A stretch of 51,579 bases of DNA from an uncultured Hyphomonadaceae bacterium (GCA_938049795.1 CALLCD010000186.1:1-51579), one strand, 5' to 3'; shown: positions 3,077 through 31,192, counted from the stretch's first letter. Program-made: numbers and translations. Notes: generated from the sequence alone by a model not told the origin.

Positions 3077-3436
3077 TTATACGTTGCGCTCGGCAGCTTT
3101 CGCCACCGCGCGGCGATAGGCCATATCAATCAGCTCCGGCGCCTGAAGCCCCTTCATATCCACCGCCGAGGCCAGATTATGCGCCTTGAGCACCGTCTTG
3201 ATGTCCGCCAGCGTCATCGCCGCAAACGCCGCCCGAAACCCCGCCTCGTCCGAGGTGATCGCAAGCTCGCGCGGATTAACGAGTTTGACCGCAAGCGTAC
3301 CTTCAAAGCTCACCTCCGCCCCAATCGCTTTGACCAGACGGACCGCGAGCTCTGGATTGGCTCGCATTTCCAGCCTGAGCTCCTCGAAAAACCTGTCGAG
3401 CTTCGTAAACGCGTCCTGATCGGTCTCGTCTGTCAT
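3077..3436 (-). CDS. Hypothetical 119-aa protein, candidate partner of the ParA-like ATPase
   Basis: The ORF starts 5 nt after the ParA-like stop and ends 10 nt before the SDR start. It has an acidic N-terminus (MTDETDQDAF), looks helical, and has no TM segment. I recognise no family. Confidence 0.6.
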   Translation of the reverse strand: MTDETDQDAFTKLDRFFEELRLEMRANPELAVRLVKAIGAEVSFEGTLAVKLVNPRELAITSDEAGFRAAFAAMTLADIKTVLKAHNLASAVDMKGLQAPELIDMAYRRAVAKAAERNV

Positions 3437-3441
3437 GCGCT

Positions 3442-4365
3442 TTATGTCCTGACCTTGGTAAAGCTCTCATTCCATTTGCGGGCATGGACAAATTTGACAA
3501 ACTCCTCGGCCAGCACCCGCACATCGCCGCGCATCTTGCCATATTTGCCACGGAACGTGTCATAACTGTCCGCCGCCGGCCGATCCATCGCCGTCAACAC
3601 TTGCACCGATTCAGGTATGGTCGGCCCGAACCAGATATCCTTGAGATAAACATTCTGAAGCTCGCTACGGGTCTGGCGGGCATAATTGGTATTTTTAAAA
3701 CGCGTAATCACCGAGAAGCTGCGATTGACAAGATCGGCGCGCACATTCTCACCCACCCACGACATAAACTGCTTAGTCCCCCACGACGACACCGCATCCG
3801 CCAAAGTCGGAATGACAAACACGTCCGCCACCGCCAGCCCCGCCCGCGAGAGCGGCGAGAGATGCGGCGGGCAATCAAGCAGGATCAGATCATAAAGCGG
3901 CAAGAGATCCGAAAACGCATTTTGAAAATGCCGCGCCAGCGCTTCGGACAGTGTCGTCGGCGTGCCCGTGCGCGAATACCATTCCTCCTCCAGCGCCAAC
4001 TCGTCCATGCGCAATTGAGGATGCGCAGGCAGCGCCGAAATCCAGCCAAGCCGTTCGGACTTCATTTCCGCGGCCCGCAATTCCTCAATCGAAACCGCAT
4101 TCGGCATAATGAACGGTCCGGCCATCGCCTTGCGCCCTTCGAGAAACTGGCCAAGCAAGTGATGCGTACCCTTGCCCTGTTCGGACGCGGCATGCACGCC
4201 CTGCTCGGTCAGCAGCATCTGGCTCGAATTGGCCTGCGCATCCAGATCAACCACGAGCACATTCAGCCCGAAATGATAGGCGAGGCTATCAGCCAGCATC
4301 ACAGTTGTTGTCGATTTACCAACCCCGCCTTTGAGATTGGCGATCGCTACGATATTTGCGGACAT
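3442..4365 (-). CDS. ParA/MinD-family P-loop ATPase (orphan ParA-like)
   Basis: Deviant Walker A motif IANLKGGVGKSTT, followed by VLVVDLDAQANSS and a Walker B-like LILLDCPP. The start is placed at MSANIVAI (cat at 4363-4365), as is typical for ParA. The ORF track allows an extension to 4407. Confidence 0.85.
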   Translation of the reverse strand: MSANIVAIANLKGGVGKSTTTVMLADSLAYHFGLNVLVVDLDAQANSSQMLLTEQGVHAASEQGKGTHHLLGQFLEGRKAMAGPFIMPNAVSIEELRAAEMKSERLGWISALPAHPQLRMDELALEEEWYSRTGTPTTLSEALARHFQNAFSDLLPLYDLILLDCPPHLSPLSRAGLAVADVFVIPTLADAVSSWGTKQFMSWVGENVRADLVNRSFSVITRFKNTNYARQTRSELQNVYLKDIWFGPTIPESVQVLTAMDRPAADSYDTFRGKYGKMRGDVRVLAEEFVKFVHARKWNESFTKVRT

Positions 4366-4504
4366 TATCAGGCGGTTCCCATCCGTATTCATTCCCCGCG
4401 CCGCCATATGCGAGCAGATGCTTGGCTGGGATTAATACTACATGGCAGACAAAATGCACCCCTGTATTTTCAATACGATTACAGCCGAAACGGAGCCAGC
4501 TAGG

Positions 4505-7105: not shown

Positions 7106-8554
7106 ATGAGCGACCTGACACAAACCGCCACAAAGGGCACCGCCTGGAATACGGTCGCAAGCCTTGCGCGAATTGCGTCCGCTCTGCTCATTCTGCCGAT
7201 CCTGACCCGCCTACTCGATCCGGCCGATTTCGGCATCCTCGCCGTCGGCATGCCGGTCATCCTGTTCATGATGCTGTTTAATGATATGGGCATCGGCCCG
7301 GCGCTGGTCCGCGCGGACAATCCGTCCAAATCCTTCTGGTCCACGGCCTTTTTCACCAATCTGGTCATGGGCACGCTGTTAACAATCATTGTTTACGCGA
7401 CCGCAGGGCTGGCCGCCGACGCCTTCAAAACACCGCGCGCCGAGCCAATCCTGCAAGCCCTCGCCTTTGCCCTAATCCTGAACTGTTTCAGCGTCGTCCC
7501 AGGCGCATGGTTAATGCGCCAATTCAACTTCCGCGCGCTCGCCATCATCGAAATCGTCTCAAGCTTTACCGGCATCGCCGTGGCGATCTACACCGCACAA
7601 CAGGGCGCGGGGGCATGGGCGCTCGTCTGGCAGCAATTAACCATGTTTGCCTTCAAATCAACGCTGCTGTGGGCATGCGCGCGGGTGCCATTGGCATTAA
7701 CCTTCGATTGGCGCGAGATCAAAGCCATTTTGCCCTTCATTTCGAACCTTTTGGGCTCACAGATCATCAACTTTTTCGCCCGCAACAGCGACAATTTCAT
7801 CATAGCCCGGGTCTTGGGCGAGGCGGCACTTGGCTTCTACTCGATTGCCTACCGGATCATGCTCCTGCCGATCCAGTTCTTCGCCTGGGGCATCGCCAGC
7901 GTCCTGTTGCCAACGCTTTCAACCTTCAAAACGGATCTTCCACGGGTTAAACAGGCCTGTTTGCGCGTGTTCCGGATCATCGCCCTGATTACATTTCCCG
8001 CTATGGCCGGCATCGCCGCGCTATCGGAACCGATTATCGGGGTTATCTTGGGCCCAAAAATGCTCCCCGCCGCCCCAATATTAGCTATTTTGGCGCCAAT
8101 CGGCGCATTTCAGAGCCTTTCAAGTTCCCAAGGCGCCATGTTCATGACCCTTGGACGCACCGATATTCTGCTCCGCTATACCTTATTGACCACAATCATT
8201 GTGGTGATTGCCTTCGTAATCGGCACCAGATTTGGGCTCGTCGGCACCGCCATCGCGTATCTGATCGGCAATATGATCCTTGTCGTCCCGATTTTCCGGT
8301 CTCTGCTCGGCCTGATGGATGGGACTCTGCGCGATATGTGGGGCGCGGTCGGCATAACCGCAATCAATGCCCTGCTGATGGGCGCAATCATCTATTTATT
8401 GGCTGAATACCTTCGGTTTTCGGGCGCGACTGATCTCGAAACCCTGCTCATCTGCATTCCCGCCGGCGGCGCCCTCTATGGCGCATTACTTCTACTGACC
8501 GATCGGAAGGCCATTCCGGAACTCTTCGATCTCGGCCGAAAAGTGATCGCATAG
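7106..8554 (+). CDS. MOP-superfamily polysaccharide flippase (Wzx / PST-type)
   Basis: 482-aa ORF with about 12-14 hydrophobic helices. The N-terminus KGTAWNTVASLARIASALLILPILTRLLDPADFG is typical of Wzx/RfbX-like proteins. Confidence 0.8.
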   Translation: MSDLTQTATKGTAWNTVASLARIASALLILPILTRLLDPADFGILAVGMPVILFMMLFNDMGIGPALVRADNPSKSFWSTAFFTNLVMGTLLTIIVYATAGLAADAFKTPRAEPILQALAFALILNCFSVVPGAWLMRQFNFRALAIIEIVSSFTGIAVAIYTAQQGAGAWALVWQQLTMFAFKSTLLWACARVPLALTFDWREIKAILPFISNLLGSQIINFFARNSDNFIIARVLGEAALGFYSIAYRIMLLPIQFFAWGIASVLLPTLSTFKTDLPRVKQACLRVFRIIALITFPAMAGIAALSEPIIGVILGPKMLPAAPILAILAPIGAFQSLSSSQGAMFMTLGRTDILLRYTLLTTIIVVIAFVIGTRFGLVGTAIAYLIGNMILVVPIFRSLLGLMDGTLRDMWGAVGITAINALLMGAIIYLLAEYLRFSGATDLETLLICIPAGGALYGALLLLTDRKAIPELFDLGRKVIA

Positions 8555-10719: not shown

Positions 10720-11634
10720 TTGCGTAGAGAACTGGATCAGTTGAGGCGATATACGTATGAAACGCGGCGCAAGCTGTCGGCCCGTTTCTATGCCAGCTAT
10801 GATGCCACCCTCGCCCGGTTCAAAAGCGGCCGCGATCGTTTGACCGGCGGACCAGCCAGCGCGGCTGCACATCGCACCCCTGAGCGCAAGAGCGCCGCCT
10901 CCAAAGCCATCCCCGAAAGCTCCGTGCCAGAGGGCATCTGCATCTACGCTTTTGGAGATATTCATGGCCGGGCTGATCTGCTGGAACGATTGTTCGACAC
11001 GGTCGAAGCCGACATTGCCGAACACGCCAGCGACCAGAAGATCCTACTGATCTTTCTTGGTGACTATATTGATCGGGGCTTTCAGTCGCGCGACGTTATC
11101 GACTTCCTTCTGTCGGACCGCGTAACCAAATACCAGTGCATCTATCTGAAGGGCAATCATGAGGAAGCCCTGCTGAAATTTATGAGTGATCCGACATTTG
11201 GTCCCCGCTGGGCCGGATATGGCGGACTGGAAACGTTGACATCCTACAGCGTCAGGCCCCCGCGCATCCGTACGGTTGGCGAGGAATGGACCCAGGCCTG
11301 CGACAGCCTGAACGAGGTCATGCCACCCGAACACCGCAGCTTCTTCAAAGCACTGGAAGTCTCCGCAACGATCGGCGATTATGTGTTCGTCCATGCCGGA
11401 TTAAGACCGGGCAAATCGCTTGAGGATCAGGTCGAACAAGACGCCCTGTGGATCCGCGACGAGTTTCTGAATGATGACTCCAGTTTCGGCGTCATTGTCG
11501 TTCACGGCCACACACCGATCTCTGCGCCCCACCGTGACTTTCGCCGCATCGGCATCGACACGGGTGCCTATCTCAGCGGCAAACTGACAGCGGCATGCTT
11601 CATGCGTAGTGACGTCAGGTTCATATCAACATAG
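10720..11634 (+). CDS. PPP-family metallophosphoesterase (PrpA/PrpB/ApaH-like Ser/Thr(/Tyr) protein phosphatase)
   Basis: All PPP signature blocks are present: GDIHGR, GDYIDRG, GNHE, VHAG and HGHT. The start is uncertain. It is either the TTG at 10720 or an in-frame GTG at 10924, just before the catalytic core. The stop lies 16-46 nt before the OPX gene. Confidence 0.85.
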   Translation: MRRELDQLRRYTYETRRKLSARFYASYDATLARFKSGRDRLTGGPASAAAHRTPERKSAASKAIPESSVPEGICIYAFGDIHGRADLLERLFDTVEADIAEHASDQKILLIFLGDYIDRGFQSRDVIDFLLSDRVTKYQCIYLKGNHEEALLKFMSDPTFGPRWAGYGGLETLTSYSVRPPRIRTVGEEWTQACDSLNEVMPPEHRSFFKALEVSATIGDYVFVHAGLRPGKSLEDQVEQDALWIRDEFLNDDSSFGVIVVHGHTPISAPHRDFRRIGIDTGAYLSGKLTAACFMRSDVRFIST

Positions 11635-11680
11635 ACTGTCCTGACCGGTAATGGGACAGAAAAGACGAAAGGGTCTGAAA

Positions 11681-12280
11681 ATGACGATACGGAGATGGTT
11701 TCTGATCTTGTCGAGCGCAATATTATTTGGCTGGGTGGTCGGTTGTCAGACCGCCACAACGCGAACGGCAGAAGCACCTGCCCCGCAGGTCCAGACACAG
11801 ACCTCGGCAACCTCAAACCTTGCATATAATCTTGGCAATGGCGACCGTTTGCGCGTCACCGTTTTCGGCGAGGAAGACATGTCCGGCGAATTTCTCGTCG
11901 ATGGCACAGGTCAAGTCTCGATCCCGCTTGTGGGCGAAGTGCCCGCAGCAGGCCGGTCGGTTCGTGACTTCCAGCGCAATCTGGAAACCCGGCTTGTCGA
12001 CGGCGGCATTCTGCTGAACCCACGCGTCAGCGCAGAAGTGATCAATTTCCGCCCCTACTATATTCTAGGTGAGGTTGGGCTGCCCGGCGAATATCCCTAC
12101 ACGGACTCGCTCACAGTGCTCAACGCAGTTGCCACGGCACAAGGGTTTTCCTACCGCGCCAACAAGAAAACCATCGGCATTCGCGGCATTGACGACTCAG
12201 AAGAACAGAGAGTGCGCCTAACCCCGGACCTCAAAGTTCGCCCAGGCGACACAATCCGCGTTCTTGAGCGGGTCTTCTAG
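11681..12280 (+). CDS. Short outer-membrane polysaccharide export (OPX, Wza/ExoF-like) lipoprotein
   Basis: Lipoprotein-type signal MTIRRWFLILSSAILFGWVVGC. A Poly_export-like block follows: GNGDRLRVTVFGEEDMSGEFLVDGTGQVSIPLVGEVPAAG. Then comes one SLBB-like segment ending RPGDTIRVLERVF. The protein is only about 199 aa. The track ORF starts at 11651. Confidence 0.85.
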   Translation: MTIRRWFLILSSAILFGWVVGCQTATTRTAEAPAPQVQTQTSATSNLAYNLGNGDRLRVTVFGEEDMSGEFLVDGTGQVSIPLVGEVPAAGRSVRDFQRNLETRLVDGGILLNPRVSAEVINFRPYYILGEVGLPGEYPYTDSLTVLNAVATAQGFSYRANKKTIGIRGIDDSEEQRVRLTPDLKVRPGDTIRVLERVF

Positions 12281-12306
12281 GCCCGAAAAGACAACCGAAG
12301 ACATTT

Positions 12307-12346
12307 GGCAACTCCGTGCCCAAAAGCGCGGAGTTGCCTTTTTTTT
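12307..12346 (+). terminator. Strong rho-independent terminator after the OPX gene
   Basis: GGCAACTCCG (12307-12316) pairs with CGGAGTTGCC (12329-12338). An 8-T run follows at 12339-12346. Confidence 0.8.
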
Positions 12347-12670
12347 CGAGCAGGACAGTCGATGACGCGATCAAACTGGGACAGTCGGGCGAGCCGTAGC
12401 TGGCATTGTCTTGAGGATACGCCACACCGCAATTCATAGGGCAAGTTGGACTTTCAACAGTCACGAGCATGGTCTACTGCGTTGCTGGAATTGACTAATT
12501 CGTATAAAACTGTGCTGATATCGCCCGCGATAAGGTTAAAGATCTAGGTCAATTATTTAAACAACTGGCCCTTTGCGTATCTATCTGTTGACCCGATTTT
12601 TATTTTGTCGCGCCATATTTCGGTACCGATTGTGAGCCACCTAAGCGGTGTCACTCAGGATGGAATCCGA

Positions 12671-12706
12671 TGTAGACTGGCATTAAACTTGCTACTCCGG
12701 TCTACA
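12671..12706 (+). promoter_or_regulatory. Inverted repeat / 5' leader hairpin upstream of the beta-barrel-wzc operon
   Basis: TGTAGACTGG (12671-12680) and CCGGTCTACA (12697-12706) form a 10-bp stem with one G-U pair when read as RNA. It lies about 50 nt upstream of the ATG at 12757, inside a roughly 410-bp AT-rich region. Confidence 0.3.
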
Positions 12707-12756
12707 GTAACTTTTGTATTTTCGCCATTAGGCATAGGGATCAGGGAACGTGTATC

Positions 12757-14025
12757 ATGTTAGGACTTAGAGCTGCAGCACTCGTAGGGGTCGGTCTTGC
12801 TGCACTGACAGCACAATCAGCAACCGCGCAGGAATTTTTCAAGCGCGACCGGAATGTCGGCGTTTTGGAGCGGCCACAGCCGGAATTTGATCCGGAGCCG
12901 GTTCGCTTGGGCGCAATTGATGCACGGCCTTCGCTTGGTCTTGGCGGATACTATATAGACAATGTGTTTGCGACCGCAGACAATGAAGCCAGCGATTTCG
13001 CTTTTACCATCCGTCCCGAAGTTGACTTGCGGACCACATGGTCACGTCACGAACTGGGGGCAAACGCCGGCGTCGAGCATTTCGAGTTTATCGACGAAAG
13101 CTCCGAGAGCGTAACCAATTTCAATGGTGGTGTGCGCGGACGTCTTGATGTCACCCGCGACTTCAGCGTTACGGGCTTCGGCTTTGGCCGTCGGCGGCAT
13201 GAGCAGCGCACGCAGATCTCTATTCTGGACGAGTTCGGTGAGCCGGTCCGCGTCAACGAGTTTGGCGGCGGCATCAATGGCACCTATGAGCGCGACCGGA
13301 TCCAGCTGCGGCTTGGATATGATTTGCGCGACCAGAACTTCCGCGATGTTGAAACCACAACAATTGGCGATATTGATCAGGACTTCCGCGACAATCTGCG
13401 CCACACGGTCACAGGCCGGGCCGCTTATGCCGTAACGCGCGACTTCGCCGTGTTCACACAGGCCAGCTATTTCACCCGCGACTTTGACAACCTCACTCCG
13501 CTGCCTGGCGGTGTTCTGGCGAGCCGCGACTCCGATGGCTTTACGGTACAAGGCGGCATCAACTTTGAACTCGCAGCCCCCTTCCGAGGCGACATTGCGG
13601 TCGGCTATCTCGAAGAAAACCGCGACTCTCCCCTCTTTGCCGATATTTCCGGCCTGAGCGTGGATGGTCGTTTGCAATGGTTCCCAACCCGTCTAACGAC
13701 ACTTACGCTGACCGGATCTCGCCGGACAACAGATGTCGGTCTGATCGAAGCGGCTGCGGCCACCTCCAACAGCGCCAATCTGCGGGTCGATCATGAATTG
13801 CGCCGCAACTTTACGGTCTATGCCGATGGCGGTCTGTTCGACACCGAGTTTGAAGATTTCGACCGCGATGACACCTTCTTCGATGTCGGCTTTGGTGGCA
13901 TCTACAAATTCAACAAGCGCATCCACCTTGAAGCGTTCTACCGTTACACCAATCGTGACTCCTCGATCCTAACCGAAGAGTTCAACCAGAACATCGTTGG
14001 ATTTGAGCTACGGTTCCACCCGTAG
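12757..14025 (+). CDS. Outer-membrane beta-barrel protein (polysaccharide-export-associated porin candidate)
   Basis: Signal peptide MLGLRAAALVGVGLAALTAQSATA|QE. The body shows alternating amphipathic strands rich in Y/F/G/R/D. The C-terminus is ...VGFELRFHP, with an aromatic residue near the end. Confidence 0.75.
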   Translation: MLGLRAAALVGVGLAALTAQSATAQEFFKRDRNVGVLERPQPEFDPEPVRLGAIDARPSLGLGGYYIDNVFATADNEASDFAFTIRPEVDLRTTWSRHELGANAGVEHFEFIDESSESVTNFNGGVRGRLDVTRDFSVTGFGFGRRRHEQRTQISILDEFGEPVRVNEFGGGINGTYERDRIQLRLGYDLRDQNFRDVETTTIGDIDQDFRDNLRHTVTGRAAYAVTRDFAVFTQASYFTRDFDNLTPLPGGVLASRDSDGFTVQGGINFELAAPFRGDIAVGYLEENRDSPLFADISGLSVDGRLQWFPTRLTTLTLTGSRRTTDVGLIEAAAATSNSANLRVDHELRRNFTVYADGGLFDTEFEDFDRDDTFFDVGFGGIYKFNKRIHLEAFYRYTNRDSSILTEEFNQNIVGFELRFHP

Positions 14026-14076
14026 GTCAAACACCTTTCATAGAGTATATTAGAGTACAGTCCGGAGACCGGTTTC

Positions 14077-16347
14077 GTGAACAAAGCTTACCCCCCAATC
14101 GATATTGCATCGACCTATCCAAGCTATGGCCCGCCGATTGTCGCGAAAGAAGACGCGCTGATCGACATTCAGAAACTGCTCCAGATTGTGCGGCGTCGTT
14201 TCTGGATCATGCTCCTGGTCTTCGTCCTGACGGTGGCAGCTGTCACAGCTCTCACCGTCCGGATGACGCCGGTCTATACAACAAGCACACGCGTCATTGT
14301 TGACAGTCGTGACACCCAGATCGTCGAAGGCTTCCGCGAAGGGATCAGCACGACGACCGCCGCCATCGACACCGAAGTACAGGTCATCCGTAGCCGGACA
14401 CTCCTTTCGAAAGTTGTCGAACGGCTACAATTGCAGACCTTGCCGGAGTTCAACCCGTCGCTCTGGAATGATCCGGATGCCAAGCCCGGCATGGTGGATC
14501 GGGTCAAGGGCTTTATCAAAGGCATCTTACCCGGCGGCTCGGATGATGCGAGCGCAGCCCCCGCCGAGACAGAAGAAGAAAAAGCCGAGCGGGAATTTCA
14601 GACAGCGGTCAGTATGCTGAGCAACAAGGTCAATGTGACCCGTGTTGGCGCAACCTATATTATCGATATTCTGGCCACCAGCGAAAGCCCGACCCTCGCC
14701 GCGCAAATTGCCGACACGGTGGCCACCGAATATGAAGTTGACCAGCTCAACGCCAAATTCGAAGCGAACAAGCGCGAAACCGGCTTCCTTGAGGAAAAAC
14801 TCAGCGCCCTGCGCGAAGAAGTCCGACAGGCTGAAAGCGCGGTCACCGCCTATATGATTGCCTACAATTTGACCGACGCAGACGGAATTTCGATTGCCGA
14901 ACAGGAGATCACCCGCGTCACCACCGATCTGACCAATGCCGAAGCCGAACTGGCCGCAGCACAGGCCCGGCTCAACAATGTTCGCTCGACCCTCGCCCGC
15001 GGCGGCAGCACGGACAGCGTCGCCGAAGTGCTGGGCTCTGCCGTCATCGGCGAACTGCGTCGTCAACAGGCCGAGATCGCGCGCCAATATGCCGAGCTTA
15101 GAACCCGCTATGGCGAGCGTCACCCTGAAATTCTGCGGATCCGGAGCGAAGCGGCTGATGTCGACGCCCAGATCGCCGCCGAAATGGGCCGGATCGTCTC
15201 AAGCCTTGAAGGCGAAGTGGACGTTGCCGAAAGCCGCGTGCGTAGCCTCCGCGCCAATCAAGGCCGCAACCGCTCAATTCTGGCACAAAACAACCGCGCT
15301 CGCGTTGGCCTTGGCGAGCTTGAGCGCGAAGCGGAATCCAAGCGTCTGGTCTATCAGCGCTATCTGGAAACCAATAATGAGCAGGGCTCGTCCGAGAAAT
15401 ACGCCCAGGCAGATGCCCGCATCCTGTCAGCGGCCGCCATCCCATCCTCGCCAAGCTTCCCGCGCACCAAGCTGAACATTGCCCTCGGCATGATCCTTGG
15501 CGGCATGTTGGCAGCCGGCCTCGCCCTGCTTGCCGAATTGCTGGACAATTACTTCAGCACACCAGAAGACATCGAGCGCATGTTCGGGCAGTCCTCCATC
15601 GGCTCCATCCCGCTTCTGACCAAGCTCAAAAGCTTTGGCAAGAAAGAGATCACACCGGCGGACTATCTCATCGCCAACCCGCTCTCCGCCTTTGCTGAAA
15701 GCGTGCGCAACCTGCGGGCCTCGATCATCTTTGCCGATCTCGACAAAGAGTCCAAGACAGTCTCGATCACCTCATCCCTCCCCGATGAAGGGAAGACCTC
15801 GATGACGTATTGCCTCGGTCGCATGTCCGCCATGTCCGGCGCGCGGACAATCATCATTGATGGTGACTTCCGTCGCCGCCAATTGACCGAAGTGATCGGC
15901 TTTGAACCAGAGCGCGGCTTTATCGAACACTTGTTCGGCGAGGTCACCCTCGAAGAAGCCACCTATATTGACGAGCAGACAGGGCTGCACATTCTGCCGC
16001 TCACCAATGCCCGCAACACCCCGCGTGATGTGTTCGGTTCGAAAGCCTTCGACACACTGATCGAAAGCCTGAAAGACAGCTATGATCTGATCGTCATTGA
16101 TACGGGTCCGATCCTTCTGATGGCTGAAAGCCGCGTGGTCGCCAGCAAGACCGATCAGGTCATCGTAGTCGCCAAATGGCGCTCGACAAGCCGCTGGACG
16201 GTACAGGAAACTCTGAAAATCCTGACCGACTTCAATGCGAACATTGCCGGGATTGCCATGACATTTGTGGACATGTCCAAGCGCAAAAAGCACGGCTATG
16301 GCGGAGCCAATTACGACTCCTACAGCAAATACTACACATCAAGCTAG
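14077..16347 (+). CDS. Polysaccharide co-polymerase / BY-kinase (Wzc/ExoP/GumC-type)
   Basis: 756-aa ORF with a GTG start after GGAGA. It has an N-terminal TM segment, a long coiled-coil periplasmic region and a second TM segment. The C-terminal P-loop domain has Walker A SLPDEGKTS, Walker A' IIIDGDFRRR and Walker B LIVIDTGP. The tail is tyrosine-rich: HGYGGANYDSYSKYYTSS. Confidence 0.9.
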   Translation: MNKAYPPIDIASTYPSYGPPIVAKEDALIDIQKLLQIVRRRFWIMLLVFVLTVAAVTALTVRMTPVYTTSTRVIVDSRDTQIVEGFREGISTTTAAIDTEVQVIRSRTLLSKVVERLQLQTLPEFNPSLWNDPDAKPGMVDRVKGFIKGILPGGSDDASAAPAETEEEKAEREFQTAVSMLSNKVNVTRVGATYIIDILATSESPTLAAQIADTVATEYEVDQLNAKFEANKRETGFLEEKLSALREEVRQAESAVTAYMIAYNLTDADGISIAEQEITRVTTDLTNAEAELAAAQARLNNVRSTLARGGSTDSVAEVLGSAVIGELRRQQAEIARQYAELRTRYGERHPEILRIRSEAADVDAQIAAEMGRIVSSLEGEVDVAESRVRSLRANQGRNRSILAQNNRARVGLGELEREAESKRLVYQRYLETNNEQGSSEKYAQADARILSAAAIPSSPSFPRTKLNIALGMILGGMLAAGLALLAELLDNYFSTPEDIERMFGQSSIGSIPLLTKLKSFGKKEITPADYLIANPLSAFAESVRNLRASIIFADLDKESKTVSITSSLPDEGKTSMTYCLGRMSAMSGARTIIIDGDFRRRQLTEVIGFEPERGFIEHLFGEVTLEEATYIDEQTGLHILPLTNARNTPRDVFGSKAFDTLIESLKDSYDLIVIDTGPILLMAESRVVASKTDQVIVVAKWRSTSRWTVQETLKILTDFNANIAGIAMTFVDMSKRKKHGYGGANYDSYSKYYTSS

Positions 16348-16603: not shown

Positions 16604-18133
16604 ATGACGCAAGACACACACACCTTGGGCAGTGACGGCTCCAACCGCGAAACTGATGGCACGCTCGGGCGCGCCTTCAGCTCTGCGGTAAGCTGGAATG
16701 TGGCCGAGATGCTGGTGGCCCAGCTTGTGACTGTGGGCCTCTATTTCTTTCTCGCCACACAAATCCCGCTCGAAGTTTTCGGTGTCTTCTTTGTCGCCGC
16801 CATCCTCGCCGACTTTATATATTTCCAAGGACGCTCCTCCTCGGTTGATGCCATTATGCAGACTAAGGACTTCTCGCAAGAGAACCTGTCATCCGCCTTC
16901 TGGGCCATGCTAGGATCAGTCATCATAATGGGTTTAGGGATCTGCTTGATCAGCCCCCTCTTCGCCTGGGTACAGGGCAACAAGGCTTTCCTCCTATTCA
17001 TGCCCGCGCTCGCACTGACGCTGTTGCCACTTCCCCTCGGAGTGCCCGCGCAAGCCAAGCTTAATCACATACTCGACTTCAAAGGCATTGCCGCACGCGG
17101 GATCACCGCCTCTCTGGCCGGCGGCATCGCAGCTGTGATGGTTGTCTTGTTTACCTCTTTTCCGGAATGGGCGCTCGTCGTACAAAGGGCGGTCAGCACG
17201 ATCTGTTCGGTCGTCTTCCTCGTCTGGCGCGCCAAATGGCTGCCAAGTTTCAAGCTCAAAGCCGGTTTGGCCCGCCGCTTCCTTTCTGATGTCAGCCGCA
17301 TCTTTTTTGCTCAGGGGCTGCATGCCTCGATCCCGCGTATCCTTATCTTCATGATCGGCATTGCATTCGGTCAAGCCGCCGTCGGTGCCTTTGAATGGGC
17401 GCGCCGACTGGCCGAGATGATCTATGGCGCTGTTGCGGCACCGATGGGATCGCTTTGGGTCATTATGTTCAGCCGCTCTGATATGAACACCACCGAGCGA
17501 CAGGAATTGTTCGGACGCCTGACGACCATGTGCGCCCTGATCTGCCTGCCACTGTTTGCGGGCCTGGCTCTGGTATCCTACGATATTATCGAGCTGATGC
17601 TCCCCGACAGCTATGCCGGCGTGGCACCCCTTCTGATGATTTTGAGCTGTATCGGCCTGCTCGCACCGCTATTCTACTTTCGCAATGCCGCGTTCACCGC
17701 GCTCCAGAAGCTCAACTTTCTCGTCGGCCTGGCCATAGTCGATGTCCTTGTCGTCACAGTGATATCTGTGCTGACCATTTTTGTCCTCAAGCTGCGGCTT
17801 GAATATGTGATGCTGGCAATCCTGGCGCAACAGATCGTCACGATTGCCCTCTTCCTGCCAACCCTTTTGACAGCGATGGAATCCTCGCTTGGCAGGATGG
17901 TCATAGCCATCGCGCCGGGCTATGTCGGAACGCTCGCAATGGCGCTTTCGGTGCTCATTGTCACCGGACTGGTCATAGACTTGCCGGTGCTTGCACAACT
18001 GATCGCAAAGATTGCGACCGGCGCGATTGTCTATGCGATTTTCCTGATCTGTTTCCATCGGAACTGGCTGATCTCGGCAGCCGAAATGTTGCTCCCTCGA
18101 TTGAATTCGGACCAAGTTGGACAAGCGGCATAG
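16604..18133 (+). CDS. Second MOP-family oligosaccharide flippase-like membrane protein (ExoT/Wzx-like)
   Basis: 509-aa ORF with about 14 hydrophobic helices. The N-terminal block GRAFSSAVSWNVAEMLVAQLVTVGLYFFLATQIPLEVFG resembles polysaccharide-biosynthesis flippases. Confidence 0.7.
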   Translation: MTQDTHTLGSDGSNRETDGTLGRAFSSAVSWNVAEMLVAQLVTVGLYFFLATQIPLEVFGVFFVAAILADFIYFQGRSSSVDAIMQTKDFSQENLSSAFWAMLGSVIIMGLGICLISPLFAWVQGNKAFLLFMPALALTLLPLPLGVPAQAKLNHILDFKGIAARGITASLAGGIAAVMVVLFTSFPEWALVVQRAVSTICSVVFLVWRAKWLPSFKLKAGLARRFLSDVSRIFFAQGLHASIPRILIFMIGIAFGQAAVGAFEWARRLAEMIYGAVAAPMGSLWVIMFSRSDMNTTERQELFGRLTTMCALICLPLFAGLALVSYDIIELMLPDSYAGVAPLLMILSCIGLLAPLFYFRNAAFTALQKLNFLVGLAIVDVLVVTVISVLTIFVLKLRLEYVMLAILAQQIVTIALFLPTLLTAMESSLGRMVIAIAPGYVGTLAMALSVLIVTGLVIDLPVLAQLIAKIATGAIVYAIFLICFHRNWLISAAEMLLPRLNSDQVGQAA

Positions 18134-21481: not shown

Positions 21482-22437
21482 CCGCGATGACGGCGATTGA
21501 TGTCAGCGTAATTATGCCCGCATGGAAATCTGCGGCCTTTATCGAACGGGCCATCACATCCGTTTTGGTCCAACAGGATGTTTCGTTCGAGCTTATCATT
21601 GTCGATGATGCCTCTCCGGACGACACCGGCGCCATCGTCAAGGCGGCTGCAGCCAGCGATCCACGCATCATCTATGACCGGCTCGATGAAAATATGGGCC
21701 CCTCTGGCGCGCGCAATCGGGCAATAGAGCTCTCAAATGGGGCATTTATTGCCGTACTTGATGATGATGATGTCATCGCGCCCAACCGGCTGGCAACGCT
21801 GCTCAAGGCGGCTAAGGCGCATACGGCCGACATCATCGTCGACAATATGCAACCCATACACTGGCCCGCAACCGACCCCGGCCAGGAACGGTTTCTCGAC
21901 ATTCCGCCAGACGCCGCCCCGCGCCCGATTTCACTTAAGGACTATATTGACCCCGCCACAGAAAAGCGGCTGGGGCAGGGGCTTGGATACCTTAAACCTC
22001 TGTTCCGCAAAGCAACCCTAGACCGGCTAGGCCTGCGCTATGATCTGAACCTACGTAACAGCGAGGACTTCTATCTGGTCGCGGAAATGCTGGCGCTGGA
22101 CTGCAAAATGGTCCTGATCGCCGATGCCGGCTATTTCTATACGATCCGCGAAGGTTCCTTATCCTATCGGCTCAGCGCTGATTATGCCGAGGCGATTGTC
22201 GAGGCAGAAAGGAGCTTTCGAGCCCGACATGCCATGAAATTTGATCCGCCTACTGCCCGCGCCTCCAAGCGCCAGCTCAACCAGCGACTCGACTATTTTG
22301 CATTTGCAAAACTGGTCGAAGCCTTGAAAGCACGCAATGTGTTCCAAGCAATACGAACCCTCGCCACACATGTCCGTTCACTGCCATTTATGGTTTGGAC
22401 GCTGGCGCAGATCGCCATAAGCAAATTACGCAAATGA
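21478..22437 (+). CDS. Family 2 glycosyltransferase (ExoO/ExoU-like architecture)
   Basis: IDVSVIMPAWKSAAFIERAITSVL...LIIVDDASPDDT...AVLDDDDVIAPNRL. The GTG at 21478 overlaps the previous stop (GTGA). An alternative ATG lies at 21487. Confidence 0.85.
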   Translation: MTAMTAIDVSVIMPAWKSAAFIERAITSVLVQQDVSFELIIVDDASPDDTGAIVKAAAASDPRIIYDRLDENMGPSGARNRAIELSNGAFIAVLDDDDVIAPNRLATLLKAAKAHTADIIVDNMQPIHWPATDPGQERFLDIPPDAAPRPISLKDYIDPATEKRLGQGLGYLKPLFRKATLDRLGLRYDLNLRNSEDFYLVAEMLALDCKMVLIADAGYFYTIREGSLSYRLSADYAEAIVEAERSFRARHAMKFDPPTARASKRQLNQRLDYFAFAKLVEALKARNVFQAIRTLATHVRSLPFMVWTLAQIAISKLRK

Positions 22438-22585
22438 CAATAATCCGTATGACAACGGTAGACATTCAGGATTGCGAGCCCGATTGCAGATACAGACCCC
22501 GCCCGCTTGCATTATTGTGGCGTTGGAAAATATGGGATCAAGGGCGGAGTACCGCGTCCTGATTCAAAAAATGCCGAAAATATTT

Positions 22586-22795
22586 CTAGCCGAAAAAGCG
22601 AAGACCGCAATAAATTACAGTGCCCCAAAACGCGCCACAAACGCCAATGACGAGCAACGCAGATTGCCAGACGGGCCAACGGATTGTGTCGTCATAATAG
22701 ACCACACCGTTTTTCACCGTGCGGGAGTTGGACTTGAATTTGAAGTCGGCAGCGGTATGGGTCGTCGCTGGTAAAGCCTGATTTGTGTCCTGCAT
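22586..22795 (-). CDS. Small (69-aa) C-terminally membrane-anchored protein, divergent from the priming transferase (ExoX/Psi-like by position only)
   Basis: MQDTNQALPATT...WPVWQSALLVIGVCGAFWGTVIYCGLRFFG, with one clear TM helix. A good RBS (AGAGGA) lies 9 nt upstream of the ATG at 22795. The track ORF extends to 22885. I recognise no homology. Confidence 0.4.
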   Translation of the reverse strand: MQDTNQALPATTHTAADFKFKSNSRTVKNGVVYYDDTIRWPVWQSALLVIGVCGAFWGTVIYCGLRFFG

Positions 22796-23260
22796 CTTTC
22801 CGATCCTCTCTTCGCTTTTTCGATTGAGATTCTTTTGTTCTTGCTGGGTTTCCCAGTACAACAAATCCCTCGTCAACAATCCCATATGACATTCAAATAA
22901 TTAAATATGGCCTAAAGAACCTCTTAAATTTACAACGAATCAAATAAAAACTTACTCTACGAAAACAGCCTGCCATACAAACAAACTAGGCTGAATACAC
23001 AAATAGTATAAGGCAAAATTTTGATTATTGGCGTAACGACTTGGTGAACATAGCCAAAACGAAGCGTTAAGATAAATCGGACAAGTAGGCAAATGTCGGG
23101 CGCATATGGCGAATATGAGAGCAATCAACCTCGAAAATGGAGCCAGTTTTTTCGAACGGCGTAACAGATGATATCCAAAATCGGGAACCGTATCACTGGA
23201 AGGCGTCGTCTAAAAACGACATTGGAGAGTGACACTTCGCATAAAACCGCGACTGATGTT

Positions 23261-23304
23261 TCTATTCGCCTGAGTGGAGAAAAGGCTGGGCAGAGGCGAA
23301 TAGA
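23261..23304. promoter_or_regulatory. 11-bp perfect inverted repeat in the AT-rich region upstream of the priming transferase
   Basis: TCTATTCGCCT (23261-23271) and AGGCGAATAGA (23294-23304) with a 22-nt spacer. It lies about 250 nt upstream of the ATG at 23556. Confidence 0.35.
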
Positions 23305-23555
23305 TCGTCTTTACACTTGATTAAGGCTGCGAGAGAAGCGATTAATGAATTGGATCGAGAGACAAGCCCTTGGACAGGGGGCCTCTCAGGTTTTCTGAAT
23401 AGATTGCCTCCTGGGGAGGAAAGCGATCAGGATGTTTCATGACAGCCTCAACTTTGGAGGTTCATGGGGAGTTCAGCGGAAATAGTCCAAGAGTTGGCGT
23501 GGAACTTGTTTGGTACGTGTCAAACTGGTTCAACTTAGTAAATTGGGACAAGTCT

Positions 23556-25387: not shown

Positions 25388-26284
25388 TTAGTCCCTCTTG
25401 TCCACCGCGACAGCCTGTCCGGTCTCCTCACCGACGGGTTTAACCCCCGCCCAGTTATCAGAACATTGCGGCGTCTGCAGATCATCAGACCGGCGGAACG
25501 ACATACATTTATAGTCCGCCCTCACCGGCGCAGAAAATGTCGGCGCGCCATGCCATTTATATTGCTGCTGTGTGCCGGTCCACAGGTTCGCAATAATCCG
25601 CCCGGGCGTTTGCGGCACAGGTGTCGTCTCTTCGGGGCGCTCATAGACCAGTTCATTGTCCACATACCAGCGGATCGTCTCCGGCGTCCATTCAAACGCA
25701 TAGAGGTGGAAGTCCTTGGTTGCATCAAACCCGAGCTCATGCCAGAGCGCGGCCCCCTCTTGGCCATTGGTAAACCAGTTCAAATAAATCCGGCGCGTAT
25801 CCTTGCCCAGCACTTCGAAATCAATCTCGTCATGCGGATCGCCAAAATAAGGCCCCGTATGAGTGAAAAACGAGGTGACCAATCCGCTGCCCACAGGCGC
25901 ACGCATCACGACCTCATAGCGGCCAAACCCGTAGCGTCCGCGCCTTTGATATTCGCCGGACGTATACGCATTGGTCGGGCTCGCCTGATCCGACAGCCGC
26001 AGCGACATGCCCTCGGCATCAAACCCGATATGATCGGTCGCCCAGCCCACTTGCATGAAATGCCCGACATTATCGAAATCAGAGCGATACCACCCCTCAT
26101 CATCATGCATATCCTCGAACCAGTTTACGAAACTGGCCCCCGATTTATAGGTATCATAAGACAAATCCGGGCGCACAAGGGGCTTGGGCAGGAGAAAATA
26201 CCCAATAATCAGAACGATCAGCAGCGCAAAAAGCAAAAACCAAACGCCAAACCGTGCCGGAGCTTTGGGAGAATCATCAGCCAT
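25388..26284 (-). CDS. Glycoside hydrolase family 16 endo-beta-glycanase (ExoK-like)
   Basis: N-terminal membrane/signal anchor FGVWFLLFALLIVLIIGYFLLP. The GH16 catalytic motif is DEIDFEVLG. WTPETIRWYVDNELV is also typical. Confidence 0.9.
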   Translation of the reverse strand: MADDSPKAPARFGVWFLLFALLIVLIIGYFLLPKPLVRPDLSYDTYKSGASFVNWFEDMHDDEGWYRSDFDNVGHFMQVGWATDHIGFDAEGMSLRLSDQASPTNAYTSGEYQRRGRYGFGRYEVVMRAPVGSGLVTSFFTHTGPYFGDPHDEIDFEVLGKDTRRIYLNWFTNGQEGAALWHELGFDATKDFHLYAFEWTPETIRWYVDNELVYERPEETTPVPQTPGRIIANLWTGTQQQYKWHGAPTFSAPVRADYKCMSFRRSDDLQTPQCSDNWAGVKPVGEETGQAVAVDKRD

Positions 26285-26657
26285 AAGCAGGTCTTTCCTT
26301 GCGCCATTGCAGCGGTTTCGCGTTCAGATCATTAGATCGCCAGGGTTAAAGCTTGGCAATCATCACCGCTCGAACTTGCAATAGAGGGGCCAGACAGCAG
26401 GCGTCTAGCAGGTTTTGCACCCTGACCCTTTTATCAAGGATCAGAGAGTTTCAACGCTGACACCCCCTGAATATATGAATAAAAGATTAACGCTTGCATC
26501 CGCAGCCGCTTTGTGATGAATGCTCGGCTGGTTTTGAAAGGTGACAGTCTCATCGAGTTGAGGTTTTTAGCGCGCCCAGTGTCTCCATGAACCTGCCGCA
26601 TCTTGAACACATTCAGAGTGTTTTCAGACAGTTCAGTTTACGATTATGGAGTTCCCC

Positions 26658-27233
26658 ATGTTCAGACCCCTACGAACCCTTCTGGTGTCCACGGTTGCGC
26701 TCGCCGCAGCCGGACCGGCACTGGCCGACGACCAGATCCACATTCTCGGCTGGCTCGAGCACGCCAATGTCACCTCGGTCGACATCCGCGTCGATGCCAA
26801 GCTCGATACCGGCGCCAAAACATCCGCCATTCACGCAGAAATCCTCAGCCGTGACGCACTCAACGAAGATGAAGTGCGCGAATTGGGTCTTGAAACCGAC
26901 GATGATGAGGAAATCCTAGACGTCAGCGACGTAGCCGAGGACAATCGCGGTAAGGTCGTTGTGTTCCGGATCTCCAATGAAGACGGCGAAGACCGCATTC
27001 TCGAGCGCGAAGTGATCCGCACCGTGTCGATCAAAAAGCGCGGTGGCGGCGTCGAAAAACGCCCGGTTGTCGAACTGGAGCTGTGCATTGCCGGCATTCT
27101 CGTCGATGGCGAAGTGAGCCTTGCCGACCGGACCACATTCAACTATCCACTCCTGATCGGTCGCGACATGCTTGAAGAGGGTGATATCGCCGTCAATCCT
27201 GACGCTGATTACACCGCGTCCGCTCGGTGCTAG
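26658..27233 (+). CDS. Secreted retropepsin-like peptidase (COG4067 / so-called ATP-dependent zinc protease, RimB-like)
   Basis: Signal peptide MFRPLRTLLVSTVALAAAGPALA|DD. The aspartic-peptidase-like motif is VDAKLDTGAKTSAIHA. The C-terminal block NYPLLIGRDML is present. An acidic insert sits in the middle. GGAG lies 6 nt upstream of the ATG at 26658, and an alternative ATG is at 26646. Confidence 0.8.
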   Translation: MFRPLRTLLVSTVALAAAGPALADDQIHILGWLEHANVTSVDIRVDAKLDTGAKTSAIHAEILSRDALNEDEVRELGLETDDDEEILDVSDVAEDNRGKVVVFRISNEDGEDRILEREVIRTVSIKKRGGGVEKRPVVELELCIAGILVDGEVSLADRTTFNYPLLIGRDMLEEGDIAVNPDADYTASARC

Positions 27234-27302
27234 CGACATAGACACAAGCCAGAGCCAGCGGGCGGGAAACTCGCGGGCTCAGCGCGGGAGGGTACCTCAT
27301 TT

Positions 27303-28889
27303 ATGGTTCGCATGCAAATTCTGATTGTTGTGCTGATCCTGTCCGCGCTCTCCGGGGCCTTGTTCGCCTATAAAGTGACCAAGCTCGGCTTTCCGGTCAC
27401 GCCCAATCAGGACCAGTCCGAGTTTTATGTCGAAGCGCGCGTCTCGTTCACGGGCGGCACCGGCCCTGTCTCCGTCAAAGCCGCTTTGCCCAACAGCGCC
27501 GCCGGATTTGCCGTTCTAGAAACAGATGCGCTGGCCACCGGCTTCGGCGTGCTCGAAGAGGCGGACGAGGACGGCAATGCCATGTTCTTCGAGCAGCGCT
27601 CAGCCGAAGGCCCGCAAACCGTCTTCTATCGCGTTCGCGGCTATCGGGTCGATTCCTCGAACGTGGCCAGATCAGGCGGCCGGACCCCCGAAGCCGTCTC
27701 GCCCTTTGCAACAGACCTGCGCAAACGCACCCTCGGCACCGAACCGACCCCCTTCCTGCTCGCGCTCGATGACATTATTGAGCTTGGACAGTCCCGCTCC
27801 GCCGACGACCGCAACTTTGTCCGCAACACCGCACTTATTCTCGCAGATACCCGCGACGAACGCGTTGAAACACTGATCGAGGATGCGGCAACCGATTTAC
27901 GCGAGCCCGAGCGGCTTCTGGTCACCGTCCTGCAAGCGGCAGAAATCCCCGCCCGCCGCGTTGTCGGCCTTCCCGTACGCGCCGAACAGGCCGCCGTCAC
28001 CCCGCGCATCGCCATTGAAGCCTATTTCGAGGACCAATGGCACCGGATTTCCCCGCGCACCGGCAGCGTCACCACCGATGATGTGTTCATTCCGCTCAGC
28101 TATGGCGAAGCCCCGCTTATCAGCGGCGAAGGCACCATCGGCGAGCCGGACATCAGTTTCAGCGTTCGCAATGTCATCAATGACCGGCTCGAACACGCGC
28201 TGTGGACCAGCCGCGCGGACGCCCCCATTGTCAGCTGGGTATCGCTTCTGTCCCTACCGCTAAGTACGCAAATCGTATTCAAAGCGATTTTCCTCGTCCC
28301 CATTGGCGCTCTGGTCATCGCCTTCTTGCGGCAAATGGTTGGTGTCAGCACATTCGGCACCTTCATGCCGGTCCTGATTGCGCTGTCTTTCCGCGAAACC
28401 GGGCTGTTTAACGGGATCGGTCTCTTTGTCGGACTGGTCGGCGCGGGGCTATTACTGCGCGCCTACTTCTCAAAGCTACATCTCTTATTAGTACCGAGGC
28501 TAACGGCAGTGCTGGCCATTGTCACCTTGCTCATGGCCTTCATCGCGCTTTTGGGCAATGCCGCAGAATTTCCGATCGGCCTGTCCATTTCGCTCTTCCC
28601 GCTGGTGATCCTGACCATGACCATCGAGCGCATGTCCATCATGTGGGAAGAAGTCGGCGCACGCGAAGCCCTGATCCGTGGTGCAGGCTCAATCATTGCG
28701 GCGATCATCGCCTTCCTCATCGTCTCAAACGAGCGGATCGAATATCTCGCCTTCGTCTTCCCCGAATTGCTTCTGATCATCGTGGCGCTGGCCGTCCTGC
28801 TTGGTGGGTATAATGGCTACAAACTGTCCGAATATCTGCGCTTTAACATGTTCGGCCAGAAGCTACCCGGCCTCGAGGACACCGAATGA
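27303..28889 (+). CDS. Inactive-transglutaminase-like domain fused to a 7TM module (UUP1-like membrane protein)
   Basis: 528-aa ORF. It has an N-terminal TM anchor, a roughly 290-aa soluble domain with a TGase-like block LLVTVLQAAEIPARRVVG, and then about 7 hydrophobic helices. The entire protein contains no cysteine. Confidence 0.8.
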   Translation: MVRMQILIVVLILSALSGALFAYKVTKLGFPVTPNQDQSEFYVEARVSFTGGTGPVSVKAALPNSAAGFAVLETDALATGFGVLEEADEDGNAMFFEQRSAEGPQTVFYRVRGYRVDSSNVARSGGRTPEAVSPFATDLRKRTLGTEPTPFLLALDDIIELGQSRSADDRNFVRNTALILADTRDERVETLIEDAATDLREPERLLVTVLQAAEIPARRVVGLPVRAEQAAVTPRIAIEAYFEDQWHRISPRTGSVTTDDVFIPLSYGEAPLISGEGTIGEPDISFSVRNVINDRLEHALWTSRADAPIVSWVSLLSLPLSTQIVFKAIFLVPIGALVIAFLRQMVGVSTFGTFMPVLIALSFRETGLFNGIGLFVGLVGAGLLLRAYFSKLHLLLVPRLTAVLAIVTLLMAFIALLGNAAEFPIGLSISLFPLVILTMTIERMSIMWEEVGAREALIRGAGSIIAAIIAFLIVSNERIEYLAFVFPELLLIIVALAVLLGGYNGYKLSEYLRFNMFGQKLPGLEDTE

Positions 28890-30317: not shown

Positions 30318-31192
30318 GCAAACACCACCGTCCGCTGCCCGTTAAGGAAAATCCGCCCCTCCGCATGCGCCGCCACAGCGCGCGCCAATGTACGCGCCTC
30401 GATGTCGCGCCCCTGCGCAATCATTTTCGCAGGCGTCGCGCGATGGTCCACCGGCTCGACTTGCTGGGCAATGATCGGCCCTTCATCAAGATCAGCCGTA
30501 ATGTAATGCGCCGTCGCCCCGATCAGTTTGACGCCTTGCCTGTACGCCTGATGATAGGGCTTTGCGCCCTTGAAACTTGGCAGGAAGGAATGGTGGATAT
30601 TGATGCACCGGCCTTGCAATTGCCGACACATATCGTCCGACAAAACCTGCATATAACGCGCAAGGATCACCAGCTCGCTGCCGGTCTGCGCGATGATCTC
30701 GGTCAATTTGGCTTCGGCAGCAGGCTTTGTCTCGGCCGTGACCGGAATATGGATGAAAGGCAGATTATCCCGCTCGGCATGCCATTTCGCATCCATATGG
30801 TTTGACACAATCGCCGCCACATCAATGCCAAGCCGCCCGCGCCGATAGCGATAGAGCAAATCGTTCAGACAATGATCAGCTTTCGACACCAGGATCAGCG
30901 CTTTGGGCTTTTGCTGCGACGGCCGACATGAGACTTGCATGTCGAGCCGCCCCGCAAGAGCCTCAAGATCGGCCTTGAACGCATCCGGATCAAGCGTGCG
31001 GTCCTGATCGGTAAACTCCGAACGGATAAAGAACATCCCCGTATCCGGATCACCATAATCATGGCTCTCGACAATGTTCAGCCCGCGCTCGGCCAGAAAG
31101 CCCGTCACCGCAGCGAGAATGCCGACGCCATCCGGGGCCGTGCAGCGCAGAATATGATTGTCTCCCTCCGCCGTCTCGACCTGTCCGATCAT
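30314..31192 (-). CDS. purU: Formyltetrahydrofolate deformylase
   Basis: 292 aa. An N-terminal ACT-like domain ([30 protein letters not shown]) is followed by a formyltransferase core ([20 protein letters not shown]). Confidence 0.9.

Follow-up and report, generated by a model that had tools for sequence, protein, structure and literature searches.

The window analysed here is a 51.6-kb stretch of DNA (51,579 nucleotides; GCA_938049795.1 CALLCD010000186.1:1-51579) from an uncultured Hyphomonadaceae bacterium, and it contains a Wzx/Wzy-type exopolysaccharide locus at approximately 2350–26300. We focused on a gene of this locus that encodes a phosphatase of the PPP family and lies beside an OPX gene of the export machinery, upstream of the gene for Wzc, a tyrosine kinase of the bacterial kind (BY-kinase). 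Pfam scans of the open reading frames (ORFs) revealed seven GT2 and one GT4 glycosyltransferases in the locus; its other genes encode two Wzx-like flippases, a Wzy polymerase, a sugar-nucleotidyl transferase, an initiating phosphoglycosyl transferase (Bac_transf), and the export proteins. The nearest relatives of the window are Hyphomonadaceae metagenome-assembled genomes, and its DNA was matched in marine-metagenome DNA runs only, with no RNA-seq match informative of operon structure. The features required for the following argument are listed below.

10720–11634, + strand: PPP-family phosphatase gene (304 amino acids, TTG start, Pfam Metallophos)
10723–10845, + strand: N-terminal extension of the phosphatase (predicted helix and start conservation)
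10954–10968, 11059–11079, and 11152–11163, + strand: phosphatase motifs GDIHG, GDYIDRG, and GNHE, respectively
11308–11334, 11389–11400, 11503–11511, and 11554–11565, + strand: phosphatase motifs LNEVMPPEH, VHAG, HGH, and IDTG, respectively
ATG 11651 or ATG 11681 to 12280, + strand: Class-3 OPX lipoprotein gene (Pfam Poly_export and SLBB)
12307–12346, + strand: intrinsic-terminator-like hairpin followed by T8 (pattern scan, fold energy)
12757–14025, + strand: BBP2_2 outer-membrane beta-barrel gene (Pfam PF10082, E = 3e-84)
14077–16347, + strand: Wzc-type PCP-2a tyrosine autokinase gene (Pfam, NCBIfam, alignment to E. coli Wzc 7nhr)
15697–15717, 15772–15798, and 15850–15879, + strand: Wzc motifs ExxRxxR, Walker A, and Walker A', respectively
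16081–16110 and 16297–16335, + strand: Wzc Walker B motif and tyrosine cluster, respectively

The ORF at 10720–11634 matched Pfam Metallophos (E = 4.9e-16), and its product bears the full PPP signature that the sequence-only reading had recognized: GDIHG (amino acids 79–83), GDYIDRG (114–120), GNHE (145–148), VHAG (224–227, including H225), and HGH (262–264), all of which are invariant across 67 homologues. In bacterial-type PPP enzymes, (I/L/V)D(S/T)G replaces the eukaryotic SAPNY motif and HAG replaces HGG (Andreeva & Kutuzov 2004, PMC535813). The present protein has both hallmarks, namely the HAG of VHAG and IDTG at 279–282, of which D280, T281, and G282 are invariant in the homologues. Andreeva & Kutuzov (PMC535813) described an insert motif, LxxAxPxxH, that the Rhilphs of plants have in common with the 'group I' PPPs of Alphaproteobacteria, and the corresponding segment here, LNEVMPPEH (197–205), lies between GNHE and HAG with V in place of A; L197, P202, and H205 do not vary among the homologues, several of which carry the A. 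Arabidopsis Rhizobiales-like phosphatase 2 (RLPH2) was the top solved-structure match by sequence (E = 5e-10) and the top PDB profile match (E = 1e-16 vs 4e-12 for the runner-up), while the best Foldseek matches of the phosphatase model were lambda phosphatase, RLPH2, and PnkP. Judged from these motifs and matches, the gene product is a catalytically intact-looking two-metal PPP phosphatase related to the alphaproteobacterial group I/Rhilph enzymes. None of the NCBIfam equivalog cut-offs was reached (PrpE, 49 vs 340 bits; PnkP, 47 vs 750; ApaH, 38 vs 176; PrpA/B-type, 33 vs 326). The protein contains no CxGNxCRS P-loop, the hallmark of Wzb-type low-molecular-weight protein tyrosine phosphatases (LMW-PTPs), and Metallophos is its only Pfam match; it is thus at most an analogue of Wzb and not a member of the Wzb family. 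Likewise, neither a Pfam PHP match nor the HxH/DDG motif of PHP-type CpsB was found in it.

In an AlphaFold2 model (pLDDT 89), amino acids 2–42 of the phosphatase form one long helix, which is followed by a disordered linker (43–66) and the catalytic core. The helix is basic (12 K/R vs 5 D/E) and has no hydrophobic segment. The sequence-only reading had made the basic N-terminal extension of roughly 70 amino acids conditional on the TTG start being real, and the start proved to be genuine: TTG and the ~28 codons that open the ORF are conserved in L081, a relative of 84% identity, where a large share of the changes are synonymous, the DNA 5' of TTG diverges with indels, and the homologues are ~300 amino acids long. 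The extension is present family-wide with variable sequence. A start codon downstream of TTG was ruled out by this pattern of conservation and divergence. An exported or membrane-bound phosphatase was also ruled out, as there is no signal peptide or transmembrane segment, and the basic, hydrophilic nature of the helix indicates that the protein is cytoplasmic. Apparent fusions of the phosphatase to Wzc or other domains were ORF-calling artefacts; the long ORFs of loci L027 and L073 and protein P0018 gave Metallophos only or nothing.

Wzc consists of 756 amino acids with Wzz, GNVR, and AAA_31 domains in Pfam, and aligns to E. coli Wzc (7nhr) over amino acids 413–752 (E = 1e-33). Its Walker A (SSLPDEGKT), Walker A' (IIIDGDFRR), Walker B (LIVIDTGP), and ExxRxxR motifs have residues invariant in 12 homologues, and five tyrosines (Y741, Y746, Y749, Y752, and Y753) fall within the last 16 residues. 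The Walker motifs and C-terminal tyrosine cluster noted in the sequence-only reading were thereby corroborated. With the domains, Walker motifs, ExxRxxR, and tyrosine cluster of a PCP-2a BY-kinase all present, the ORF at 14077–16347 is, by its sequence, a complete Wzc-type tyrosine autokinase. A tyrosine cluster of the YxxYxKYY type is kept in every co-located Wzc examined. In Hyphomonas-type loci (L008, L009, L012, L018, L019, L023, and L025), a low-complexity extension of ~50 amino acids follows the tyrosine cluster of Wzc, and the barrel and wzc genes have an orientation opposite to that of the PPP-OPX pair.

The OPX gene begins 16 nt (ATG 11651) or 46 nt (ATG 11681) past the stop codon of the phosphatase gene and encodes a lipoprotein of 199–209 amino acids (homologues are called at 199) with a ..VVGC lipobox, Poly_export and SLBB domains only, and no Wza_C helix. 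This short OPX protein is followed by the BBP2_2 barrel gene, and such a pair of a short OPX protein and a beta-barrel makes up the composite translocon known as Class 3 (PMC9601211, PMC9603273). Between the two genes, directly after the OPX gene, lies a terminator-like hairpin with a 13-bp stem (9 G-C pairs) and a run of T8 (fold energy, −33 kcal/mol; z = −5.6). The position of this hairpin suggests a two-gene transcript, and the phosphatase and OPX genes are probably transcribed together and separately from wzc. The hairpin is borne on a segment of ~110 nt after the OPX stop codon (12281–12400) that is absent from L081 and another relative, L084; by eye, a different hairpin and T-run are present at the OPX 3' end in L081. 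The spacer between the OPX and barrel genes is ~400 nt long. Its last ~180 nt 5' of the barrel gene (12580–12756) are 83% identical to L081, compared with 43–54% for the remainder of the spacer, and probably represent a conserved promoter or leader of the barrel-wzc unit.

In E. coli, the gene order is wza-wzb-wzc, with wzb between wza and wzc. The sequence-only reading had given the phosphatase gene the very position of wzb, adjacent to the kinase gene. Its location 16–46 nt upstream of the OPX gene was correct, but the equivalence to wzb was not: the order here is PPP, OPX, terminator, ~400-nt spacer, BBP2_2 barrel, and wzc, and the kinase gene is therefore not an immediate neighbour.

We searched the window for canonical BY-kinase phosphatases by Pfam on essentially all ORFs of ≥150 amino acids and by six-frame scans for the motifs CxGNxCR[ST] and HxH..DDG. 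No LMW-PTP or PHP phosphatase was found across the 51.6 kb, in agreement with the sequence-only reading for the locus; the sole other phosphatase-fold gene of the window encodes a His_Phos_1 protein (31189–31902) and lies outside the polysaccharide locus. Motif scans detected LMW-PTP or PHP motifs in 0 of 86 phosphatase-containing loci and, among 80 Wzc-centred loci, no LMW-PTP motif and a single PHP motif (L155). The latter is a true PHP gene caught by the regular expression, indicating that the PHP motif test works. In addition, no Hanks-type kinase motif was present in the window or in 166 related loci, and Wzc is thus the only protein kinase encoded nearby.

The phosphatase family is alphaproteobacterial and comprises more than 7,600 matches. 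We sampled 80 phosphatase-centred loci of species-representative genomes, of which 74 had enough flanking DNA to be informative. An OPX gene was immediately downstream on the same strand in 31 of the 74, and lay elsewhere within 10 kb in a further 13; two had only a Wzc homologue within 10 kb and 28 had neither. Thus, OPX or Wzc genes are located ≤10 kb from the phosphatase gene in 46 of the 74 loci, spread over several orders, which accords with the co-occurrence of PPP genes with export genes in Alphaproteobacteria that the sequence-only reading had put forward as a check. For a random gene, the chance of having an OPX gene next to it would be far below 1%. PPP-OPX adjacency characterizes the clade of the window in a neighbour-joining tree (21 of 23 informative loci) and also occurs on branches of Parvibaculum, Rhodobiaceae, Devosia, and Caulobacterales. 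The barrel and wzc genes of one Hyphomonas clade are found on the opposite strand, 5–9 kb off, with the PPP-OPX pair intact. Distant homologues (35–37% identity) show the same association: on a Rhizobium plasmid, the phosphatase gene lies between two BY-kinase genes and an OPX gene, and on Phaeobacter plasmids it is divergent from yjbH-yjbF-OPX. The phosphatase was matched in 59 Phaeobacter plasmid records, of which one neighbourhood was inspected (L088/L169, P. piscinae plasmid pP14_a).

The reverse test started from 80 Wzc-centred metagenome loci (25–46% identity to the Wzc of the window). Among those with this OPX type (31), the phosphatase was present in 18 and absent in 13; among the 49 without it, the phosphatase was present in one and absent in 48. 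A Fisher test on these counts is of descriptive value only, as the loci are phylogenetically related and contig coverage is uneven. Across the loci, the phosphatase is retained in the arrangements PPP>OPX, OPX>PPP, divergent, PPP>Wzc, and Wzc>PPP. Such persistence of the neighbourhood through rearrangements speaks for functional coupling and against mere inheritance of synteny. The link between the phosphatase and the export genes extends well outside the window, and the sequence features of the PPP enzyme and the kinase are real.

Comparison with characterized systems places the enzyme more precisely. Like Wzb and Etp, it is a small cytoplasmic phosphatase whose gene adjoins an OPX gene and belongs to the same cluster as that of a BY-kinase with a tyrosine cluster, and its proposed role would likewise be to reset the phosphorylation state of the kinase. 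However, it is a two-metal PPP enzyme with no CX5R motif, whereas Wzb and Etp are cysteine P-loop enzymes, unrelated to it in fold and chemistry; moreover, its gene lies upstream of the OPX gene and is apparently transcriptionally apart from wzc, and its product has an N-terminal helix. In the E. coli gfc-etp-etk operon, the LMW-PTP gene etp comes after the OPX gene, and the Phaeobacter layout is reminiscent of that operon. CpsB, CapC, and PhpA, which are Mn-dependent PHP enzymes, provide a precedent for a metal-dependent non-PTP enzyme as the cognate phosphatase of a BY-kinase, although they belong to a different superfamily and the present protein has neither the PHP motif nor a PHP match in Pfam. 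Lambda phosphatase and E. coli PrpA/PrpB share the bacterial-type PPP fold and have dual Ser/Thr/Tyr activity in vitro, but neither the family-specific insert nor the N-terminal helix is present in them, and they are not linked to polysaccharide loci. The substrates of RLPH2 are plant mitogen-activated protein kinases. RLPH2 (PDB 5vjv) shares the GDxHG, GDxxDRG, GNHE, HAG, and IDTG-type motifs and the LxxAxPxxH insert with the window phosphatase; the two are ~23% identical over the fold, and RLPH2 has longer inserts and no N-terminal extension. It is reported to have the PPP fold and yet to favour phosphotyrosine clearly, which is attributed to a deeper active-site pocket (PMC12817480); RLPH2 also has a basic side pocket.

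An experimental precedent is PssZ of Rhizobium leguminosarum bv. trifolii, a 263-amino-acid PPP enzyme encoded in the Pss-I exopolysaccharide region, whose transposon mutant produces essentially zero exopolysaccharide and is complemented by the gene (PMC6071215). As in the window, a PPP phosphatase is encoded inside an alphaproteobacterial exopolysaccharide locus, and the spacing of its metal ligands (H108–H186, 78; H186–H225, 39; PMC7020829) is the same as that found here (H147–H225, 78; H225–H264, 39). On the basis of this identical 78/39 spacing, PssZ is a probable member of the phosphatase family. Bradyrhizobium homologues are ~47% identical to the window phosphatase and likewise to PssZ, the latter according to PMC7020829. 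PssZ differs in its shorter N-terminus and in its gene, described as monocistronic and next to exo5. It was interpreted as a Ser/Thr phosphatase whose targets might include PssA, Exo5, or regulators (PMC6071215, PMC6628131), and tyrosine is nowhere mentioned in the 2019 paper on PssZ.

In E. coli, the resetting of the kinase is carried out by Wzb, an LMW-PTP, and in Firmicutes by CpsB, a PHP enzyme. The explanation that we favour, though we hold it with no more than even confidence, is that the phosphatase is an analogue of Wzb and targets the tyrosine cluster at the C-terminus of Wzc. Apparently co-transcribed with the Class-3 OPX gene of the Wzx/Wzy-type locus, it would be a dedicated regulatory phosphatase of the export machinery and would remove phosphate from the tyrosine cluster of the autokinase encoded in the locus. 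The kinase ring of dephosphorylated Wzc would then re-form, and the resulting cycle of assembly and disassembly would drive polymerization and export. The basic N-terminal helix may serve as a docking element in this process. The analysis shows to which family the enzyme belongs and that its active site is intact, that the kinase and its tyrosine cluster are intact, that the neighbourhood is conserved, and that the locus encodes no other phosphatase or kinase; that the enzyme is specific for phosphotyrosine, that Wzc is its substrate, and what its helix does are what we infer. The suggestion of the sequence-only reading that the phosphatase is a non-canonical replacement for Wzb is supported in part. 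Its functional side gains genuine, though indirect, backing from the conserved neighbourhood, the lack of LMW-PTP and PHP motifs in the phosphatase loci, Wzc as sole kinase with its tyrosine cluster kept, the relationship to RLPH2, and the need for the apparently related PssZ in exopolysaccharide synthesis. The positional equivalence is wrong in detail, and the tightest partner is OPX.

Several observations weigh against this explanation and keep our confidence at the level stated. The constant neighbour of the phosphatase is OPX rather than Wzc, and the terminator-like hairpin lies between the PPP-OPX pair and wzc. Some loci have no Wzc gene within 10 kb (L015), and on Phaeobacter pP14_a no BY-kinase gene occurs from ~30 kb upstream to 9 kb downstream of the phosphatase gene. 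The 28 of 74 (~38%) sampled family members in unrelated contexts, beside AsmA, LysR, PolA, or CorA genes, indicate that the family is not limited to a role in export loci, and 13 of the 31 related Wzc/OPX loci lack the phosphatase. In R. leguminosarum, PssP is described as having no Tyr-rich tail (PMC7020829), yet PssZ is needed there; the pssZ mutant is pleiotropic, with altered transcription of the pss genes (PMC6071215, PMC6628131), and PssZ, placed by its metal-ligand spacing, is a probable rather than a certain member of the phosphatase family. Finally, the window covers only 51.6 kb, and an LMW-PTP may be encoded elsewhere in the genome. Our reservation stems chiefly from OPX as the constant partner, the unrelated contexts, the loci without the phosphatase, the tail of PssP, and the genome beyond the window.

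The main rival explanation is that the protein is a regulatory phosphatase of the pathway with a substrate other than Wzc. It would act on phosphoserine/phosphothreonine, or on phosphotyrosine in further proteins, for instance the phosphoglycosyl transferase that initiates synthesis, a sugar-nucleotide dehydrogenase, a glycosyltransferase, or a regulator of transcription. This explanation would be in line with the proposal of the PssZ authors, with the pleiotropy and changed pss transcription of their mutant, and with the description of PssP; the pairing of the phosphatase gene with OPX instead of wzc, the loci with no nearby Wzc gene, and the many family members outside polysaccharide loci point the same way. 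We nevertheless consider it rather unlikely. With no Hanks-type motif in the window and the 166 loci, no cognate Ser/Thr kinase is encoded nearby; the tyrosine-cluster Wzc is the sole kinase in the loci, and the closest characterized relative, RLPH2, prefers phosphotyrosine (PMC12817480). The separation between the two explanations is also incomplete. BY-kinases phosphorylate other pathway enzymes too, and this rival thus overlaps with the explanation that we favour.

A nucleotide-hydrolase role and a meaningless synteny are less likely. The former would make the protein a phosphoesterase that acts on nucleotides or nucleic acids, as do ApaH, PrpE, and PnkP (e.g., an Ap4A hydrolase), with a regulatory or incidental link to polysaccharide loci. 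Such an assignment draws on the weak NCBIfam matches to PrpE, PnkP, and ApaH, on the Foldseek matches to the PnkP phosphatase domain and a putative diadenosine tetraphosphatase, and on the occurrence of the PPP signature motifs in ApaH as well (PMC535813); it is very unlikely in view of NCBIfam scores far under the cut-offs, the protein phosphatase RLPH2 as clearly the top profile match, and a neighbourhood of export machinery with no obvious nucleotide logic. According to the other possibility, the adjacency would be inherited synteny of no functional consequence, and Wzc would in truth be dephosphorylated by a canonical LMW-PTP whose gene lies in another part of the genome, of which the window covers only a portion. 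S. meliloti uses an unlinked LMW-PTP, SMc02309, as far as a citation in PMC7020829 conveys, and with no LMW-PTP in cis in the related Wzc loci (0 of 80), phosphatases acting in trans must be common. We regard this possibility as the most improbable: the neighbourhood occurs in at least four gene arrangements, in several alphaproteobacterial orders, and down to 35% identity, which is unexpected for passive synteny, and Rhizobium PssZ is needed for exopolysaccharide (PMC6071215).

Several other features of the window lie within or beside the locus. The two MOP/Wzx-type flippase genes are located at 7106–8554 and 16604–18133. A ParA/MinD-type ATPase gene (3442–4407, − strand; KGGVGKST Walker A; AAA_31, E = 2e-27) flanks the locus and is paired with a gene for a 119-amino-acid protein with no Pfam match (3077–3436, − strand); this pair is also found beside the locus in three other relatives (L081–L084 set). 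The stand-alone AAA_31 protein was ruled out as a second BY-kinase, as its Walker A is of the ParA/MinD type (KGGVGKS) and the tyrosine cluster is absent. A stretch of 1 kb at 22437–23439, low in GC (0.49) and free of long ORFs, separates a GT2 gene from that of the phosphoglycosyl transferase. It contains a perfect inverted repeat of 14 nt and an ORF of 99 amino acids (22586–22885, − strand) whose product has a hydrophobic C-terminus. At the edge of the locus is a GH16 glycoside hydrolase gene (25388–26284, − strand), whose product may be a polymer trimmer, and just past it, at 26646–29869, are a Zn_protease-like gene, a gene for a fusion of an inactive transglutaminase with seven transmembrane helices, and a sugar-transfer-associated ATP-grasp gene. 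An Rfam scan of the entire window gave zero matches.

The locus would thus hold a BY-kinase/phosphatase module whose phosphatase is of the PPP fold; the experimental precedent, PssZ, covers the role in exopolysaccharide production and not the proposed substrate. BY-kinase cycling is thought to require a partner phosphatase, and many alphaproteobacterial Wzc loci encode neither an LMW-PTP nor a PHP enzyme in cis. A 2022 review of BY-kinases names only these two as partner phosphatases (PMC9800525). The window phosphatase is a good candidate for a third kind of Wzc partner phosphatase and, if it acts on Wzc, would represent a third, mechanistically distinct class. More broadly, and somewhat more tentatively, the RLPH-type (alphaproteobacterial group I) PPPs might constitute a third, unrecognized class of cognate phosphotyrosine phosphatases of BY-kinases, built into Class-3-OPX/beta-barrel export modules across Alphaproteobacteria. 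If so, this would account for the exopolysaccharide-null phenotype of Rhizobium pssZ mutants and would supply PssZ with a definite target, a question that dates from 2018, and the unusual tyrosine specificity of plant RLPH2 may descend from a bacterial ancestor that serviced Wzc-type kinases.

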